Made by a program: the position numbers and the translations under genes. A stretch of DNA of 64,000 nt from an uncultured Candidatus Saccharibacteria bacterium (GTDB lineage: Bacteria > Patescibacteriota > Saccharimonadia > Saccharimonadales > UBA10212), in assembly GCA_964448095.1 (NCBI GenBank), contig CAYUUT010000002.1:27959-91958 (forward strand), in the 5' to 3' direction. Of this stretch, positions 1 through 33,472 are shown piece after piece. Each line of letters starts with the position of its first letter. Position 1 is the stretch's first letter. The notes beneath the pieces were generated by a model. It ran no database searches. It was not told where the DNA came from and worked only from the letters and a program-made list of their open reading frames with translations.

Positions 1-1748
1 ACACGCCTACTTATATAGTGGATTACATTGTCGCCAATGCCCTTAAACCGGTACTTGATAAGTGCCAGTCAGTTCAAGATCTTAAAAATATCAAAGTTTT
101 AGACCCGGCCTGTGGATCGGGCTCGTTCTTAATTCGGGCCATGGAAATGATTTATCAAAAATATCTGGAGTTCGGCGCCAATCCTGGCGAAATGACTAAG
201 ATTACCATTCTGCTCGATAATATTTTCGGCGTAGATCTAGACGAGCAGGCTGTAGAAATTGCTCGATTGAACCTCCTAATTAATGCTCTGGACAGTCGGA
301 TGAAGCTACCGGACCTTTCTGGCAATATTAAAAATGGCAACTCACTGATTAGTGGCACGGACGCTGAGCTAAAAAAAGCTTTTGGCAAAGATTATCGCGA
401 TAAAAAGCCCTTCAACTGGCAGGAACAATTCCCGCAAGTTTTCGAACGCAAAAACCCAGGATTTGATGTCATCATCGGAAATCCTCCATATATTAAAGAG
501 TATGTAAGCAAAGAAGCATTTGATGGACTAAGAAGCAGCCCATATTACCAGGGGAAAATGGATATTTGGACGCTTTTTTCCTGTCAGGCAATTGATTTGC
601 TACGGCAAGAAGGAACGTTAAGTTTTATCGCACCCAATAACTGGACAATGAATGCTGGTGCGAGTATTTTCCGCAATAAGATTTTGTTAGACGGGGAGCT
701 TATATCATTTATAGATTTCGCCGACTACAAAGTTTTTGACGGAGTGGGAATACAAACGATGATTTTTGTGTTTCACAAATGTGAGCCTAGGAGCGGATAC
801 CCAGTATCCTATGCAAGAATAGATAGCTCAACACATGACGCGATACAAGCAATCAAGCAAGTTGAGGAGTTAACCATAAATCCTGAAAAACTTATTGATA
901 AAACTCTCTCTTTTAGCCACTCAGGCATAGAAACTCTTCTAGAAAAAATAGCATCTAGGGCTAATTTTGAACTAGATGACGCGGAAGTAGCCCAAGGCAT
1001 AGTAGCCGCGCCCGATAAATTATTCCTCACCGATGGTCTTACCGGATTCAACAAGGATGAACAGGAGTTCTTAAAGCTCTTTCATACTTCAGTTGGAAGA
1101 TACACTAGTGGAAGTGCGGCGAAATACCTTTTTTACATTTCAGCTAAAAACTTTACCGGGGTAATAAAAGATTATCCTAATATCATGAAGCATTTTGAGC
1201 CGCATAAAAATACATTAATTGCCGCAAAAATTAAGTATGGGACTCCAGATAAACCTTACTTTTTTCTTCATCGTGAGAGAGACGAAATTTTTTTCAAAAA
1301 TGGACCCAAAATTATTTCTGCAACAAGAACCCCTTACCCAAAATTTTTATATACAGAAAAAGAATATTATGGCTCTCGAGCATTATTTTTCCTCAGGACG
1401 GACAGAGCAAACTTAAAATATTTAACAGGCATCTTGAATTCCAGATTGATAGATTTTTGGCTACATCGTAGAGGCAAACGTTTAGGAGACTTATTGCAGG
1501 TTGATAAGGGACCATTATTAAAAATACCCCTGTTTGTTCCTCCTATATCACAGCAGCAACCAATAATCGAGCTGGTCGATAAGCAACTCAATCTGAACGC
1601 AGAGCTTGATGACACTAATGAGAACTCCAACAAATGGCACGCATTAAAGTCAGAAACTGAAAAATCTGATCATCAAATCGACCAACTTGTCTATAAACTC
1701 TACGGCTTAACCCCCGAAGAAATAAAAACCATCGAATCAGGCGCGTAA
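1..1748 (+). CDS. N6-adenine DNA methyltransferase, Eco57I/TaqI-like (type II / IIG R-M family), 5' end cut by window edge
   Basis: The frame is open back to nt 3 (TPTYIVDYIV...). Motif I is DPACGSGSFL and motif IV is GNPPYIKEY. A long C-terminal TaqI-like target-recognition region follows. Stop TAA at 1746-1748. Confidence 0.8.
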   Translation, partial: TPTYIVDYIVANALKPVLDKCQSVQDLKNIKVLDPACGSGSFLIRAMEMIYQKYLEFGANPGEMTKITILLDNIFGVDLDEQAVEIARLNLLINALDSRMKLPDLSGNIKNGNSLISGTDAELKKAFGKDYRDKKPFNWQEQFPQVFERKNPGFDVIIGNPPYIKEYVSKEAFDGLRSSPYYQGKMDIWTLFSCQAIDLLRQEGTLSFIAPNNWTMNAGASIFRNKILLDGELISFIDFADYKVFDGVGIQTMIFVFHKCEPRSGYPVSYARIDSSTHDAIQAIKQVEELTINPEKLIDKTLSFSHSGIETLLEKIASRANFELDDAEVAQGIVAAPDKLFLTDGLTGFNKDEQEFLKLFHTSVGRYTSGSAAKYLFYISAKNFTGVIKDYPNIMKHFEPHKNTLIAAKIKYGTPDKPYFFLHRERDEIFFKNGPKIISATRTPYPKFLYTEKEYYGSRALFFLRTDRANLKYLTGILNSRLIDFWLHRRGKRLGDLLQVDKGPLLKIPLFVPPISQQQPIIELVDKQLNLNAELDDTNENSNKWHALKSETEKSDHQIDQLVYKLYGLTPEEIKTIESGA

Positions 1749-2264
1749 AAACTCTTCTATTTCCCGTAGATACTCACCGAAGTCGCCATGAGGATAATTC
1801 CACCACGGCCATTTGCCATATTTCTCGAAATAAGACTGCTGGAATAGAAATGGTACTAGATACTGGTTGAAGTACTTTTCGAGGTCAAAACCGTTCGCAA
1901 ATGTTTGCTCCAATTCCGATCTTGGAGCAACACAAAAGCTACCTGGCGGTGTAGCGTTTAAGTGCATATCCTGCGAGCTGACCTTTAGCCTATCTTGCGT
2001 CCGATATAACCGATCTGAAGCATCAAAAACTCGGGGCACCTGCGAGCCGCCCCGGTAGTTATGGAGGAAAATTATCGGCCAACTATCTTTGATAATTGTC
2101 TCGGGCCTGACAATAATCGGGATTTTGTCATGATAAATTAATAGATCACCATTGTAGTGGGCTCTGAAGCTGATTGTTCCAGCAAGGTGTAGGGTTGAGC
2201 CGGTGATTACGGTTCTGAGCCTGTAAATTCGGCGCGCCCATTCCGCATCAGCCTGCGGGCTCAT
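1737..2264 (-). CDS. stand-alone E2 (UBC-fold)-like protein, last gene of the NTase operon
   Basis: ATG at 2264, 2 nt after the NTase stop. The motif MHLNATPPGSFCVAP has the same H-x-N-x7-C spacing as the eukaryotic E2 motif HPNVYPSGTVC. An upstream VPRVFD resembles PPKIAF. The C-terminus looks helical and W-rich. Confidence 0.45.
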   Translation of the reverse strand: MSPQADAEWARRIYRLRTVITGSTLHLAGTISFRAHYNGDLLIYHDKIPIIVRPETIIKDSWPIIFLHNYRGGSQVPRVFDASDRLYRTQDRLKVSSQDMHLNATPPGSFCVAPRSELEQTFANGFDLEKYFNQYLVPFLFQQSYFEKYGKWPWWNYPHGDFGEYLREIEEFLRA

Positions 2265-2266
2265 AA

Positions 2267-3241
2267 CTACTCAGCCCAGGCGCCTGTCGGCCTCACATAG
2301 CCAGTTGGTCCGCCAGTAGATTTTTTCTGGTCCAGACCGCAAACTTCCGAAAGTGATTGATGCACATCTTCATTGGAGTTTAGACTCTCTAGCCCAACAA
2401 TTTTGGTAGCGGCTATTTTGATTTCGGAGTTTAAAACTTCTTTGTCTTGCGCGGTCAAGTCATTAACGTATTCGTCCACCATAACGTCGACGGAGGCCCG
2501 GTCAGGAATTTGAGCTTTCGTTAAAAAGCTGGGCAGATTTTCGAAAAAAGATTGGATAGCATCTTGAGAGGTAGCTTTGGGGTTACCGGTGAAGTATTGG
2601 GTCACGATAAGTTCGGCATGAAATGCCTTAAGCTTAAACTTATTGTCCAAACGCTTACGGCAACCATGCCGCCAACCCTTGACCAATTTTACCGAATGTC
2701 TGAAATCAGGGTTAGCCTCATTTAAATCTTGGGCTTGCTTCCTGTAGCCTCTGGGGTCAGACTTTTTGCTGTCAATTTGGTCTCGGGCTTCATACTTAGC
2801 AGCCCGAGCTGAATGGCTCATCTTCTGGATATCTGGCACTAGATAGAGCGGCTCCCCAAATTCATTCGACTCACCATCTAGTCTTAGCCCTGGGACAATG
2901 TCAATAGAAAATTCGTCCGGAAAGACCGCTGCAACCGAGTGACTCTGCTCTGTGACGGTAGCATTGTCGCCGTAGTGTTCGACAAGCATTACCGCTAGCT
3001 CCCTCATCAACTTGGGAATGTCTTCAAATTGGAGCTCAGTGTACTCGTTAATGACGTCTAGGTCGTGGACTGGATGGATTGCTGTGTAGCGGGCGTACGA
3101 TCCCGAGCGAAAAGTGTGGCCAGATAAAGTTTTCTTAAGATCGTCATATCGATTTTCGATTAGGTTGCGCTCTTTTTCCAGGGGCGATAAGTTTTCTTTT
3201 ACAAATTCGTTAATAGCTAGGTTGAGTTCCTGGGCATTCAT
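2267..3241 (-). CDS. SMODS / CD-NTase-like nucleotidyltransferase (Pol-beta superfamily)
   Basis: RSGSYARYTAIHPVHDLDV is a G-S-x11-D-x-D active-site motif. The third acidic residue is in FSIDIVPG. A helical C-domain carries KLVKGWRHG...KAFHAELIV. SD GGAAGGA lies 9 nt upstream of the ATG at 3241. Confidence 0.65.
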   Translation of the reverse strand: MNAQELNLAINEFVKENLSPLEKERNLIENRYDDLKKTLSGHTFRSGSYARYTAIHPVHDLDVINEYTELQFEDIPKLMRELAVMLVEHYGDNATVTEQSHSVAAVFPDEFSIDIVPGLRLDGESNEFGEPLYLVPDIQKMSHSARAAKYEARDQIDSKKSDPRGYRKQAQDLNEANPDFRHSVKLVKGWRHGCRKRLDNKFKLKAFHAELIVTQYFTGNPKATSQDAIQSFFENLPSFLTKAQIPDRASVDVMVDEYVNDLTAQDKEVLNSEIKIAATKIVGLESLNSNEDVHQSLSEVCGLDQKKSTGGPTGYVRPTGAWAE

Positions 3242-3242
3242 A

Positions 3243-3722
3243 TTAGTTATCCTTCCTATTTGGTGCCGTTGCCATTACTGCGAAAACATCCGCCATTAGA
3301 CGCAATGGCGTAGTAGCCAGCGAGTGGTAAGCATATTTTTTAATTCGTTTAAGCTGGTCATGGTCAATTGTATGGTCGCGGGCGTAAACAATCACATATA
3401 CCCCTTTAGCAGCGGCTTTATCATAAACTTCCCAGAATTTCTTGGAGTCCGGGCTATAGCCCAGAACCACTAAACGTTGTTCGCTCACTAAGGAGGCGAG
3501 GCTCTCACCTTCAGGCGCCAACTGCACGTTCATGAAAAGACCATTACGCTTAAAAATATCTTGTTCGGTCGCTACCGAGCAATTTTCAGTACTAACAAAA
3601 AGGACTTCACGACGGATATTGCTATAGAGGCGTTTCTCTTTACCTAGCCACCATTTGGCCACACCAACAGACGTAAACACTGAGACTAAGACAGGCAGAC
3701 CGATTTCAAAAGTTATGTTCAC
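3243..3722 (-). CDS. single-pass membrane protein with cytoplasmic TIR-like alpha/beta domain
   Basis: I place the start at GTG 3722, which has GGAGG 9 nt upstream and sits 4 nt after the DUF2188 stop. The TM helix is ITFEIGLPVLVSVFTSVGVAKWWL. TIR-like strings are VLFVSTEN, LVVLGYSPDSKKFWEV and VYVIVYARDHTIDHDQL. The longer ORF (to 3908) overlaps DUF2188. Confidence 0.5.
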   Translation of the reverse strand: MNITFEIGLPVLVSVFTSVGVAKWWLGKEKRLYSNIRREVLFVSTENCSVATEQDIFKRNGLFMNVQLAPEGESLASLVSEQRLVVLGYSPDSKKFWEVYDKAAAKGVYVIVYARDHTIDHDQLKRIKKYAYHSLATTPLRLMADVFAVMATAPNRKDN

Positions 3723-4167: not shown

Positions 4168-4824
4168 GTGAAACCAATCCATCAAAATATTCTTGACTTG
4201 GCCCAATCCCAGGACCTCGGCCTACTTACTTATCGAAAAATTGGTGAGATGCTCGGCGGAGAGCACCCATACCATATCCAGCACAATATGCGTCAGCTTA
4301 TTAAGATGGGTCTTCTCGTCGAAAATAAACGTTCCGGGTCGATTTATTTAGCTAGAAATCGCGCTGGGGACGAAAATCTTATGACTATACCGATTCTGGG
4401 TAGCGTTAGCTGCGGCGCACCAACCGAACTAGCCAATGATGAAGGCAAGGGATTTATTTCTGTTTCACCAAGCCTTATTAATGGTCGACATCCGGATAAG
4501 CTTTTTGCCCTCGTGGCAAAGGGAGATTCCATGAATAGAGCTAATATTGGCGGGGTTAGCGTGGAAAACAATGACTTTGTAATTGTTCGCCAGTCTGATT
4601 GGGGAGAGGCAAACGAAGGAGATTATGTCGTGTCGATTATCGGAGACAGTGCCAATCTTAAACGTTTCTATGTTGACAGGGAAAACCGTCGATTCGTCCT
4701 GAGGTCAGAGTCAGACATTGACTATCCTCCAATAATTATCGCTGAAGAGGACATGGAATATTATAAAATTAGAGGCGTTGCAACTGGCGTGGTAAAGGGA
4801 CTTCCGGAATCGACAGAGCCCTAG
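4168..4824 (+). CDS. lexA: LexA-like S24 peptidase repressor
   Basis: The N-terminus has a wHTH (LTYRKIGEMLGG...MRQLIKMGLL). The cleavage-site-like string is VSCGAP. The Ser nucleophile is in KGDSMNRA and the Lys is in LKRF. GTG start with no SD. Confidence 0.7.
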   Translation: MKPIHQNILDLAQSQDLGLLTYRKIGEMLGGEHPYHIQHNMRQLIKMGLLVENKRSGSIYLARNRAGDENLMTIPILGSVSCGAPTELANDEGKGFISVSPSLINGRHPDKLFALVAKGDSMNRANIGGVSVENNDFVIVRQSDWGEANEGDYVVSIIGDSANLKRFYVDRENRRFVLRSESDIDYPPIIIAEEDMEYYKIRGVATGVVKGLPESTEP

Positions 4825-8055: not shown

Positions 8056-8093
8056 TTACCACTAACGTGATACTATGGTTCCTGTTAACAATT

Positions 8094-8187
8094 TAATATC
8101 AAGAGCGCAGTAAGGGTACTAGCCCGTTGACCTGCCGCCAACCCATTTAGTTGGGTGGTAAATCTAGCCCGCAAGGGAAAGATATCG
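8094..8187 (+). promoter_or_regulatory. SAM-I riboswitch aptamer
   Basis: AUAUCAAGAG...AGGGUACUAGCCCGUUGA...GCCAACC...GGUGGUAAAUCUAGC...GAAAGAUAU matches the SAM-I core strings and the P1 pairing. It sits directly upstream of metK. Confidence 0.8.
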
Positions 8188-8196
8188 CTGAGCATG

Positions 8197-8224: not shown

Positions 8225-9184
8225 ATGAGTTCATACAAAACCGCCGAGAGTGTCAGCCCCAAACACCCGGATAAACTGTGCGACCAGATCAGCGACGCCA
8301 TTTTGGACGCCTATCTAAAGCTGGACCCGCGGGCCCGCGTGGCGGTAGAAACCGTGGGTGGCCACGGCGAGATTTTTGTGGTCGGCGAGGTGACCGCCAG
8401 CCACAAGATTGATATCGCGCCGATTGTTAAGCGCTTGGCCGGCGAGGTAAAACTGCGCCAAAAAATCGTCCACCAAAGCTCGGAAATCGCCAGCGGCGTA
8501 GACACCGGCGGCGCCGGCGACCAAGGGATTATGGTGGGCTACGCCACCGCCGAAACAGCTGAGCTTTTGCCCCTGGAAGTTGTGTTGGCCCGCCAGCTCA
8601 ACCAACTTCTGTACCAGAGCTGGCCGTACGACGGCAAAACCCAAATAACTCTTAAAGACGGAAAGATTGTTGGAGTTGTAGCCAGTTTTCAGCATTCTAA
8701 ATCGGCTGATCTGGCGGCCGCTATCGCCGAATGGCTGAAGGACAAATCTACCGCTAAAAACGTAACAATTTATGCTAACCCTACGGGCGACTGGCAACAG
8801 GGCGGCTTTGACGCCGACAGCGGCCTGACCGGCCGTAAGCTGGTAGTAGATAATTACGGTCCGCAGATCCCGATTGGCGGTGGCGCGTTTAGTGGCAAAG
8901 ACGCCACCAAAGTGGACCGCAGCGCTGCCTATATGGCCCGGCGCATCGCCGTGGATTACCTAAAAAAACATAACGCCCGCGAAGTTTACTGCTACTTAGC
9001 CTACGCCATCGGTGTGGCCGAGCCGGTAGAAGCTACGGTGATAGTAGATGGCAAACCGCGCATCGTGGAAGGCTACGACTTGACTCCGGGAGGCATAATC
9101 GAACACCTAAAGCTTAGGAAACCGCAGTTTGAGCAGACCGCCCGCTACGGCCACTTTGGCCACGGCTTTGCCTGGGATTCTTAG
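8225..9184 (+). CDS. metK: S-adenosylmethionine synthetase, unusually short (319 aa)
   Basis: Motifs seen: ESVSPKHPDKLCDQISDAILDA, GAGDQGIMVGYA, GLTGRKLVVDNYG, GGGAFSGKD.TKVDRSAAY, YAIGVAEP. Confidence 0.85.
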   Translation: MSSYKTAESVSPKHPDKLCDQISDAILDAYLKLDPRARVAVETVGGHGEIFVVGEVTASHKIDIAPIVKRLAGEVKLRQKIVHQSSEIASGVDTGGAGDQGIMVGYATAETAELLPLEVVLARQLNQLLYQSWPYDGKTQITLKDGKIVGVVASFQHSKSADLAAAIAEWLKDKSTAKNVTIYANPTGDWQQGGFDADSGLTGRKLVVDNYGPQIPIGGGAFSGKDATKVDRSAAYMARRIAVDYLKKHNAREVYCYLAYAIGVAEPVEATVIVDGKPRIVEGYDLTPGGIIEHLKLRKPQFEQTARYGHFGHGFAWDS

Positions 9185-31272: not shown

Positions 31273-31908
31273 ATGGCGTTATTTCAAAAAAGACCCGATA
31301 CCAGCAGCCGAGTACCGCTTTATAGCGTCGGTGCCCATAAGACCGTACTAATTATCGGCTTGGGCAATCCGGAGAAAAAGTACGATGGTACACGTCACAA
31401 TATAGGTTTTGCTGTGCTGGATGAATTCGCTAAACAGAACGATTTTCCGGAGTGGATAGTCAAAAAGGACCTGAAATGTCACCTAGCCAGCCTCACTATG
31501 GGAGAAAACCGGGTGGTCTTATGCAAGCCGACAACCTTTGTGAATAACAGCGGTGAGGCCGCCCAGGCGGTGCAGCATTTTTACCGGGTTTATAATGGGC
31601 AGACGCTGGTGGTTTATGATGAACTGGCCATTCCGTTCGGCCAACTTCGTAGCCGCCTGGGTGGCAGTGACGCCGGCCATAACGGTGTTAAATCACTTAC
31701 TCAGCATATTGGCGACGATTATGGCCGGCTGCGCGTCGGCATCGGCAATGAAATAGCCGAAAAGGCCGATGCTGCCGGCTTTGTACTGGGCAAATTCAGC
31801 AAAGAAGAGCAGGGCAAATTACCGGGAATTATCAAAGAAGCCGGCGTTTTAATTACTGAATATATATTTAGCGGCCAACTGGATCCCGACACCCGTACAA
31901 TCGCCTAA
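31273..31908 (+). CDS. pth: peptidyl-tRNA hydrolase
   Basis: LIIGLGNPEKKYDGTRHNIGF and GHNG. Confidence 0.9.
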   Translation: MALFQKRPDTSSRVPLYSVGAHKTVLIIGLGNPEKKYDGTRHNIGFAVLDEFAKQNDFPEWIVKKDLKCHLASLTMGENRVVLCKPTTFVNNSGEAAQAVQHFYRVYNGQTLVVYDELAIPFGQLRSRLGGSDAGHNGVKSLTQHIGDDYGRLRVGIGNEIAEKADAAGFVLGKFSKEEQGKLPGIIKEAGVLITEYIFSGQLDPDTRTIA

Positions 31909-31920
31909 AATCTTAGAAAC

Positions 31921-32330
31921 CTAAAAGCCTCCAGAGGGGGTGGGCACCGCTGGAGGCTATTACACCCTTCAACCCACCGTAAGCGAAGCTGCGAAAACTG
32001 CTAAAAAGCAAAGTTATTCGAGCCGGTACTAATCCGAAGATTAGAACGCATTCCGTGAGAAACTCGCTTACCCACGTTGAACGGGGAGAGAGTTAAAGGG
32101 GTTAGTTTGCTTAAGAGCCCGGACCCTTTTTGCTATTTCTTAGCTTAACCATTTGTAATGCAAGCGCCTGGCTTTTATACTAAGAAACAAGAAAAAGGGG
32201 CCGGATTGAACGTTTAAGTGGAGGGTATCAACTTAGACGTCCATAACTCTTAAACAATCTAACAAATGTTAGAAATGGGGGTATAAGGTACGTAAGTTTC
32301 CACTAATGAAACTTACAGATTGCAATTTTA
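31921..32330 (-). ncRNA. unassigned structured RNA candidate (strand and ends tentative)
   Basis: 460-bp ORF-free gap. It contains a UUCG-capped 6-bp hairpin (32029-32044), a 9-bp hairpin (32291-32315), a long-range helix (32000-32013 with 32126-32144), and an interleaved pseudoknot-capable 3' end followed by U4 on the minus strand. Confidence 0.35.
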
Positions 32331-32372
32331 GCAAAAAAGTGTCCTGAAGTCAAGACTAAAAAATATACCGCA

Positions 32373-33236
32373 ATGAAAGTCAATACTCTTACGCTTAACG
32401 GTCCTGGTTATCCGGCAATCCTGAAGGATATCCACCAACCGCCAAAACAGTTATTTTATATTGGAGCCCCGCCTGCGCAGTGGCTCGGCCGCCCCAAAGT
32501 AGCGGTTGTTGGCAGCCGCAAAATGACGAGCTACGGTAAGGCGGTGACCGAAAGCCTGGTGTCGGAACTGGCTAGGGCGGGGATTGTGATTGTCAGCGGC
32601 TTGGCTTACGGCATCGACGCCACAGCCCACCGGGCAGCCCTGGACGCCGGCGGTCTGACGGTTGCGGTTTTGGGAACCAGTGTTACAGACATTTCACCCT
32701 CTGGCCATATTGGATTAGCTCAGGAAATTATTAACCATGGAGGGACAATTCTTAGCGAATACGCCGCCGGCAGCCCGGCTTTTGCCGGCAACTTCGTCAT
32801 TCGCAACCGGATAGTTAGCGGCCTCTGTGACATTCTTCTAGTCACCGAGGCCGCGCTAAAGAGTGGCAGTCTACACACAGCCCGTTTCGCGCTGGAGCAG
32901 GGAAAGACGGTCATGACCGTACCTGGTAGCATTCTCACCCCTAGCAGCGAAGGCTGCAACAACTTAATTAAAAGTGGCGCTATTCCGGTAACGGATGCAG
33001 AAGATGTTTTCTTCGCCCTCAAAATCAATCCAGGTAAGCAAAAACTCGCCCTTGAGTTTCATGGTACAGACGAAGAAGAGCAAATCTTGCAACTAATCAG
33101 GGATGGCCTTGCCGGTCAGGAAGAGCTAGCTCTAGCTTCCGGCCTGGACGGCTCACAGATTGCCGGCACGCTGACCAGCCTAGAACTGCGCGGCCATATC
33201 CGCCCAGCCGGTTCGGGCAACTGGCTCGCGAACTAG
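32373..33236 (+). CDS. dprA: DNA-processing protein DprA
   Basis: VVGSRKMTSYGKAV...IVSGLAYGIDATAHRAAL. Confidence 0.85.
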   Translation: MKVNTLTLNGPGYPAILKDIHQPPKQLFYIGAPPAQWLGRPKVAVVGSRKMTSYGKAVTESLVSELARAGIVIVSGLAYGIDATAHRAALDAGGLTVAVLGTSVTDISPSGHIGLAQEIINHGGTILSEYAAGSPAFAGNFVIRNRIVSGLCDILLVTEAALKSGSLHTARFALEQGKTVMTVPGSILTPSSEGCNNLIKSGAIPVTDAEDVFFALKINPGKQKLALEFHGTDEEEQILQLIRDGLAGQEELALASGLDGSQIAGTLTSLELRGHIRPAGSGNWLAN

Positions 33237-33297
33237 CACGAGCCCCTAACTTTCCGCCGGACTCGAGACGAGCCTAAAGTCCTTTGTTGAGCGAGCC

Positions 33298-33416
33298 CTA
33301 CTTTCGACAGAGATTCAACGGAGGCGCAGCCGGTTGGGTGCTGAGCGGAGATGCGATGATTCTTTCGCAGCTCAGGCGAAGCACCCTCCGCGCGTGAGCG
33401 GCTCTGGAGAGAGTAG
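33298..33416 (-). repeat. conserved structured intergenic element, copy B (inverted orientation)
   Basis: The reverse complement shares CCGCTCACGCGCGGAGG, TGCTTCGCCTGAGCTGC and the 27-nt block GCATCTCCGCTCAGCACCCAACCGGCT with copy C. Confidence 0.75.
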
Positions 33417-33472
33417 CGTGAGCGGCGGTTGCATATATAGGTAAAGGCCTTTACACTGGGCATTTGAAATCT

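Follow-up and report, generated by a model that had tools for sequence, protein, structure and literature searches.

The stretch of DNA analysed, 64,000 nucleotides in all and called here the window, carries a gap at positions 31909-32372 that is flanked by pth (31273-31908, plus strand) and dprA (32373-33236, plus strand), within a cluster in which a response regulator gene, der, pth, the gap, dprA and topA follow each other in this order. The gap had been described as gene-free and proved to be so, the longest open reading frames (ORFs) in it being of only 30-36 amino acids. In its dprA-proximal part the G+C content falls to 0.36-0.43. The closest relatives of the Pth protein encoded here all come from metagenome-assembled genomes of Saccharibacteria (TM7), a lineage of the Candidate Phyla Radiation (CPR). 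A minus-strand ORF of 76 amino acids (33233-33463), for which no Pfam match was found, fills the spacer between dprA and topA.

The minus strand of the gap carries a sigma-70-type promoter that reached 10/12 with TG in the promoter scan, with a predicted start, deduced from the promoter itself, near 32321-32320, and it also carries an intrinsic terminator at 31958-31923. Therefore, the RNA gene would extend from about 32320 to 31923 on the minus strand, for a length of approximately 400 nt. We infer from the sequence a discrete minus-strand transcript, together with its ends and its abundance. The features of this predicted gene, with helices named in the order H1 to H12 and with base 1 of the RNA placed at window position 32322 (window position = 32323 minus RNA index), are as follows:

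32325-32353, minus strand: sigma-70-type promoter, with a -35 box TTGACT (32353-32348), a 17-nt spacer and an extended -10 box TGcTAAAAT (32333-32325).
32291-32317, minus strand: H1, 5'-terminal hairpin of 9-10 bp that begins about 5 nt past the predicted start (index 6-15/23-32).
32277-32291, minus strand: S2, conserved single strand GYACCUUAUACCCCC, in which ACCUU is invariant in 146 sequences.
32258-32273, minus strand: H2, hairpin UCUAAC/GUUAGA, fold z = -6.3.
32246-32257, minus strand: 5' strand UUGUUUAAGAGU of helix PLR, which pairs with 32107-32118 and closes domain 1.
32208-32243, minus strand: H3, hairpin with the invariant apical loop UACCCUCC (32220-32230).
32119-32204, minus strand: H4, long hairpin of variable length, fold z = -4.5, its 3' strand being GGGUCCGGGCUC.
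32101-32118, minus strand: 3' strand GCUCUUAAGCAA of PLR, followed by junction J, ACUAAC.
32092-32100, minus strand: d, CCCUUUAAC, 5' strand of the 9-bp helix d-g1, which closes domain 2.
31979-32086, minus strand: interior of domain 2, with H6 (32071-32086), H7 (32064-32071/31979-31986), H8 (32050-32063), H9 (32029-32044) and H10 (31987-32024).
31965-31978, minus strand: g, made of GGUGG (31978-31974; putative 5' arm of pseudoknot PK2) and GUUGAAGGG (31973-31965; 3' strand of d-g1), invariant in 146 sequences.
31923-31958, minus strand: H12, intrinsic terminator, a 9-bp stem AGCCUCCAG-15 nt-CUGGAGGCU followed by UUUU.
31935-31949, minus strand: terminator loop CGGUGCCCACCCCCU of 15 nt, with GGUGC (31948-31944) as putative 3' arm of pseudoknot PK1 and CCACC (31943-31939) as putative 3' arm of PK2.

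The promoter consensus of the family, GTATTGACA...TTTGCTAAAAT-TGCAA, also written TTGACA...TGCTAAAAT-TGCAA, is 80-100% conserved in 142 homologues, the -35 box being TTGACA in the family versus TTGACT in the window. At the opposite end, the stem AGCCTCCAG/CTGGAGGCT followed by UUUU, which the preliminary description had taken as one of two interleaved helices, is the stem of terminator H12; it folds better than shuffled sequences and covaries in 43 homologues. The U tract of this terminator is present on the minus strand only. Folding of the minus strand gave -157.7 kcal/mol (z = -7.6 vs. shuffles), compared to z = -4.0 for the plus strand.

The distance from the first modelled base of the RNA to the dprA start codon was nearly constant, 50-51 nt in about 30 loci (for example, window 32322-32375, L003 5061-5112 and L006 5509-5560). 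As a consequence of this spacing, the -35 box lies about 20 nt from the ATG of dprA, and neither a promoter of dprA nor a Shine-Dalgarno site would obviously fit in between.

Copies of the RNA gene were searched for by blastn and by nhmmer in about 8-15 kb of DNA per locus, the latter with a profile HMM derived from an alignment of 43 full-length homologues (alignment A1). Of 73 Saccharibacteria genome loci, 67 contain exactly one copy; in the six others the sequence ends within about 1.1 kb of pth. All the copies found lie downstream of pth and convergent with it, nearly always with dprA-topA next, and intervening genes, amounting to 1-3 kb, occur between pth and the RNA gene in several genomes. 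When metagenomes were scanned with the pattern TTGAAGGG-N10-40-GGTGCCCACCCCC, at least 120 loci matched; among the 120 matches listed, 111 were family members in the same gene context, and the other nine were discarded as chance matches, eight of them falling within GAPDH coding sequence. A single match of the motif pattern to a viral contig was also attributed to chance. One metagenome contig (L152) holds two inverted copies, at 987-1375 (minus strand) and 2909-3300 (plus strand), and may be an assembly chimera, and in L038 a further fragment comprising terminator loop and stem (4697-4744) follows the full copy.

The profile search of other CPR lineages (e.g. L075, L076 and L080) revealed no RNA gene at pth-dprA. 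In CPR bacteria outside the Saccharibacteria, pth and a longer dprA (about 360 amino acids) abut or nearly abut each other (L075, 4537/4538; L076, 4525/4538; L080, 4543/4657), and the order der-pth-dprA(-topA) is kept across CPR classes. Judging from the sequences compared, the RNA gene at the pth-dprA locus is an insertion specific to Saccharibacteria.

In total, 146 distinct full-length homologues of about 305-525 nt were collected. Over these sequences, identity reaches 97% or more at 74 window positions and 90% or more at 105, with peripheral hairpins that are free to vary in sequence and length. This core is kept even in loci L070, L071, L185 and L195, though their Pth proteins are only 41-44% identical to that of the window. 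As the core is nearly invariant where Pth has diverged to such an extent, and is preceded by a consensus promoter, the RNA is very likely important to the cell.

The helices were assayed on a profile-HMM alignment by explicit pair counting, with 500 column shuffles and with partners slid by 1-3 columns as controls. An alignment of homologous pth-dprA spacers had been proposed as a check of the locus, and in such an alignment several of the helices turned out to be conserved and covarying. In A1, 89.2% of the cells were paired vs. 82.3% in the column shuffles and 35-52% in the slid controls, and 223 cells were changed on both sides where 74 were expected; none of the 500 shuffles reached the observed values for pairing or for two-sided changes. 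Changes on both sides affected 35 of the 67 pairs, and the helices supported by covariation were H1, PLR, the inner stem of H3, d-g1, H7, the base of H10 and H12. In these helices G-U pairs outnumbered A-C mismatches by 221 to 51, and therefore the minus strand is the functional one.

When the homologues were folded one by one, the same two junction domains recurred, the layout of domain 2 included, with H4, H5, H9 and H11 variable in sequence or length, or missing. The RNA folds into two multi-helix domains, domain 1 being closed by PLR and containing H3 and H4, and domain 2 being closed by d-g1 and containing H6 to H10. PLR (index 66-77/205-216), which forms a three-way junction together with H3 and H4 and closes it, has 8 of 12 pairs changed on both sides; at its pair 72-210, for instance, 92 sequences have UA and 47 have AU. 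The same kind of change was detected in 3 of 5 pairs of the H3 inner stem (index 88-92/104-108), in 6 of 7 pairs of H7 (index 252-259/337-344) and in 8 of 9 pairs of the H12 stem (index 365-373/389-397), the loop of which is invariant. In d-g1 (index 223-231/350-358; 32092-32100 with 31965-31973) all pairs are retained in 146 sequences; its terminal pair is CG in 132, GC in 11 and AU in 1, with UA in L185 and L195, and a U-G pair is replaced by U-A in 3 sequences. At the base of H10, GGC/GCU (index 299-301/334-336), the middle pair is GC in 108 sequences and AU in 28. In many species only a short hairpin is left of H4, which is absent from L185 and L195 and is not conserved in sequence, and extra hairpins occupy the loop of H2 in many species.

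Several of the hairpins reported in the preliminary description were found again in this fold. The 9-bp hairpin at 32291-32315 is H1, which gave a hairpin fold z of -4.6, has 8 of 10 pairs changed on both sides and covaries in the 43 homologues. The TCTAAC/GTTAGA hairpin (H2, 32258-32273) and the UUCG-capped stem at 32029-32044 (H9) are also present and beat shuffled folds, and the CCCCG/CGTGGG hairpin is H6. In contrast, the bulged long-range helix proposed between 32000-32013 and 32126-32144 would join the variable apex of H10 to the variable 3' strand of H4, neither of which is conserved, so the domain of about 145 nt that it was thought to close finds no support; the closures detected are those of PLR (32246-32257/32107-32118) and d-g1 (32092-32100/31965-31973). 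A tag-like reading frame in H10, GSNNFAF*, was rejected for its lack of conservation.

Two further observations concern pairings within this fold. GUUAG at 32259-32263 is complementary to either of two CUAAC segments, that of H2 (32268-32272) and that at 32101-32105, where it would extend PLR by 5 bp. At the triplet 51/64/218, 119 sequences have CGC and 6 have UAU, so that both partners of GUUAG change along with it, and in some species the two alternative pairings do not overlap; these alternatives may constitute a two-state switch. The long versions of H4 (window, L001, L006, L019 and others) share a motif UAGUAUA opposite CUUAAGCUA that is lacking in the short ones. We presume this motif to be akin to the 11-nt receptor of GAAA tetraloops with one C-G pair swapped to U-A.

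Two segments of the minus strand, GGGUCCGGGCUC and ACCGGCUCGA, had been likened to the CR-I and CR-V regions of RNase P RNA. In the window copy, GGG(U)CCGG (32116-32109) and CCGGCUC (32026-32020) can indeed pair into a P4-like helix in which one U is bulged. This helix was nevertheless dropped, because the homologues show both segments to be unconserved and paired locally: the CR-I-like GGGUCCGGGCUC makes up the 3' strand of H4, a variable hairpin, and the GGC of the CR-V-like ACCGGCUCGA pairs with the GCU that closes H10, with compensatory changes. In RNase P RNA, P4 is formed from CR-I (…GAAAGUCC…) and CR-V (…GGCUUA…), and comparison over 43 to 146 homologues speaks against the look-alike GGGUCCGG/CCGGCUC of the window. 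To our knowledge, CR-I and CR-V are kept in every known RNase P RNA, and neither sequence was present in any of the invariant blocks described below. The RNase P lead was thus a misleading one, both motifs being peculiar to the genome of the window and located in locally paired variable hairpins, and it can be removed.

The possibility of an RNase P RNA of extreme divergence, or of an RNA that replaces it functionally, was considered also on broader grounds. The RNA studied here resembles RNase P RNA (RF00010/RF00011; 300-500 nt) in its size of about 400 nt, in an invariant core knitted by long-range and putative pseudoknot helices, in peripheral helices that are longer, shorter or missing from one species to another, in being single copy and in presumably being a stable housekeeping-type transcript. 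It differs from it in having no conserved P4, no P1 end-pairing, a helix order without correspondence to P1-P18, no hit to a covariance model and a distribution restricted to one lineage. RF00010, RF00011, RF00373 and RF02357 gave no match at gathering threshold in the window and 17 loci, and no RNase P model matched the window copy or the divergent homologues L059 and L033 at E≤10 (listing floor of about 13 bits). In tblastn searches of the locus DNA (about 8-15 kb per locus), no match to RnpA or L34 was obtained, an outcome that is uninformative for the RNase P reading. Rfam cut-offs do miss real RNAs in the genome of the window, as in the case of a SAM riboswitch of metK (41.7 vs. 44.4 bits), and RNase P RNAs of CPR bacteria frequently score below these cut-offs (PMC8172020). 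Lui et al. recovered RNase P RNAs with canonical features from all their CPR genomes, two Saccharimonadia among them (PMC8172020). As the PGAP annotation of a complete Nanosynbacter genome lists only two ncRNAs (PMC8830319), and as CPR RNase P RNAs are often sub-threshold, a small residual probability is kept for the RNase P reading, which we regard as highly improbable.

The scan was extended to all 4227 families of Rfam 15, another check proposed in the preliminary description, at both gathering threshold and E≤10. No family matched at gathering threshold in the window or the 17 loci, and at E≤10 only chance matches to microRNA-precursor hairpins and one rimP-leader match below threshold (16.3 bits, E = 4.1, on the plus strand of L059) were obtained, with none of them assigning the window copy to a family. 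Large lineage-restricted RNAs such as OLE, the raiA motif, ROOL, GOLLD and HEARO are highly structured, contain many conserved nucleotides, are often free-standing with their own promoter and terminator and had a function that was unclear or only partly known at discovery. The RNA at pth-dprA shares with them the restricted distribution, the structure, the many conserved nucleotides and the promoter and terminator of its own, and it differs from them by its two junction domains, by a putative double pseudoknot through the terminator loop and by its Saccharibacteria/CPR host. The OLE, raiA, ROOL, GOLLD and HEARO models matched neither at gathering threshold nor at E≤10, and these identities were rejected on that basis. 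The literature that could be searched on ncRNAs, RNase P and tmRNA of Saccharibacteria contained nothing specific to this RNA, and in the searchable literature no match to its invariant motifs was found.

An aberrant tmRNA, SRP RNA or 6S RNA could be imagined from the housekeeping-like conservation and the strong promoter and, for tmRNA, from the similar size, the several putative pseudoknots and the position next to pth, a gene that acts in ribosome rescue. ARAGORN was negative for tmRNA both in the window and in 20 homologous loci, and none of the tmRNA, SRP and 6S models matched at E≤10. Unlike tmRNA, the RNA lacks a tRNA-like domain, a CCA end and a tag frame, and indels among the homologues are not multiples of three, with no conserved reading frame. 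Its two junction domains, supported by covariation, correspond neither to the domain IV of SRP RNA nor to the single rod with a central bubble of 6S RNA. We consider this possibility extremely remote.

On the other hand, the promoter and the terminator, the lack of a conserved frame, the covariation and the existence of relatives are those of a free-standing structured ncRNA gene, with transcription as a prediction. The preliminary description was thus partly confirmed in its observations and partly supported in its interpretation. Its reading of the gap as a structured ncRNA is upheld by the conserved promoter and terminator, the covarying helices and the absence of an Rfam match, with the minus strand as the most likely one.

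The invariant blocks of the RNA are GYACCUU in S2, the H3 loop UACCCUCC, CUCUUAAACAAACUAAC-CCCUUUAAC, GGUGG-GUUGAAGGG and the terminator loop CGGUGCCCACCCCCU. The segment UACCCUCCAC of H3 is at least 97% identical in 146 sequences, and alignments of the homologues revealed no intramolecular partner of the H3 loop conserved family-wide. The terminator loop is complementary to two of the other blocks: its GGUGC to the GYACC of S2 (32291-32287), which would form PK1, and its CCACC to the GGUGG that directly precedes the 3' strand of d-g1, which would form PK2. The latter corresponds to a pseudoknot already put forward between GGTGGG (31939-31944) and CCCACC (31973-31978), of which the arms are present and invariant in 146 sequences and the pairing is plausible and beyond the reach of covariation. 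Because the segments involved are invariant, covariation cannot test PK1 or PK2, with the exception of position 33, where 74 sequences have C and 72 have U, in each case facing the invariant G378. If the terminator loop does pair with both GYACC and GGUGG, as its complementarity suggests, a double pseudoknot would result in which ten consecutive loop bases are paired and which clamps both ends of the molecule to its centre. Such clamping could produce one compact, nuclease-resistant core.

An alternative pairing of UUAUACCC in S2 with GGGUGUAA was rejected, since conservation does not extend to its outer bases, five loci (L044, L056, L067, L070 and L071) lack the ACCCCC of S2 and the GGG is engaged in the covarying d-g1.

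Reduced RNAs of about 290 nt were detected in L185 (approximately 120-420, plus strand) and L195 (approximately 2070-2380, plus strand), where Pth is about 41% identical to that of the window. Both lack H4 and H5, have U-A as the terminal pair of d-g1 and carry an A instead of C36 in PK1. As they retain UACCCUCC, CCUAAC, UUGAAGGG and GGUGCCCACCCCC despite this reduction, they outline a minimal core.

The C-rich composition of the invariant single strands raises the question of a base-pairing regulatory RNA, in which the loops UACCCUCC and CCCACCCCC and the segment ACCCCC would repress translation by pairing with mRNAs at their G-rich or Shine-Dalgarno regions. RNAIII of Staphylococcus aureus, its terminator loop included, and the actinobacterial 6C RNA, which is an Rfam family, act through C-rich loops. 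The RNA described here resembles both in being free-standing and multi-hairpin, with its own promoter and terminator, and in having several single strands that are C-rich and invariant, of which one belongs to the terminator loop and another, the H3 loop, contains CCUCC. Unlike in RNAIII and 6C RNA, however, invariant G-rich partners (GGUGG and GAAGGG) are found within the same molecule, so most of the C-rich stretches are probably used internally, and a whole folded core is conserved phylum-wide. About 74 invariant nucleotides across the phylum combined with a variable periphery are typical of RNP or ribozyme cores and not of seed-type regulators. In addition, sites complementary to the H3 loop are not enriched within the window and no targets were found there, a survey of Shine-Dalgarno usage in the genome of the window gave a weak and noisy signal with few strong sites, and 6C RNA was absent from the Rfam matches at E≤10. 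A regulator of this type is therefore rather unlikely.

The position of the gene suggests a further possibility, that its main role is exerted in cis as an antisense unit within an ancestral der-pth-dprA-topA operon, where transcriptional interference or antisense pairing would control the read-through from pth into dprA-topA. It agrees with the gapless junction of pth and dprA in other CPR lineages, with an RNA gene that is always convergent with pth in Saccharibacteria, with the spacing of 50-51 nt in about 30 loci, in which a dprA promoter would not obviously fit, and with a U tract at the terminator on the minus strand only. Interference, however, needs neither 74 invariant nucleotides nor covarying domains nor an invariant terminator loop, and in several genomes pth and the RNA lie 1-3 kb apart, with other genes in between. 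Thus, a main role in cis is very unlikely; as the spacing to dprA is nearly constant and the terminator one-directional, a side role is possible, and a cis effect could be at most a secondary consequence of gene position.

With the alternatives so weighed, it is likely that the locus encodes an independently transcribed, single-copy ncRNA on the minus strand, that this ncRNA represents a new family specific to Saccharibacteria and that it acts in trans as a structured RNA or ribonucleoprotein (RNP). Action in trans is favoured because of the consensus promoter, the 5' hairpin, the terminator stem, the phylum-wide core and the variable periphery, a five-part pattern that points to a stable folded RNA or RNP core rather than to a seed-type regulator. 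As judged by Rfam 15 and the searchable literature, a previously undescribed family is the best reading, with an earlier description being possible.

In the mechanism that we propose for this trans-acting RNA, it would work as a stable structured RNA or as the scaffold of a ribonucleoprotein, and its exposed invariant elements, namely the H3 loop UACCCUCC and ACUAAC, would offer a recognition surface to a conserved partner. The loop shares a CCUCC core with the anti-Shine-Dalgarno sequence of 16S rRNA, and one copy of the ACUAAC element would always be unpaired.

A more speculative extension, which we hold to be possible at best and on balance unlikely, is that the RNA forms the core of an essential RNP or ribozyme specific to Saccharibacteria, that is, a new class of large housekeeping RNA of the rank of RNase P RNA, tmRNA or SRP RNA. 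In the most extreme version, it would replace the canonical RNase P RNA without homology to it. One universal ncRNA may be escaping the standard annotation of these genomes. Saccharibacteria are the best-studied members of the CPR, ultrasmall epibionts with genomes of about 1 Mb that contain little dispensable sequence. The RNA provides a concrete entry point into lineage-specific RNA biology of the CPR, for which cultivated and genetically tractable strains of Saccharibacteria exist (PMC10633639).

Elsewhere in the window, a full-length SAM-I riboswitch match (RF00162) was detected at 8093-8188 on the plus strand, directly upstream of the ORF for SAM synthetase (metK, 8225-9184). With E = 4e-6 and the score of 41.7 bits mentioned above, against a gathering score of 44.4, it is almost certainly a real riboswitch missed by the standard cut-offs, and it illustrates how Rfam cut-offs miss genuine RNAs in Saccharibacteria.
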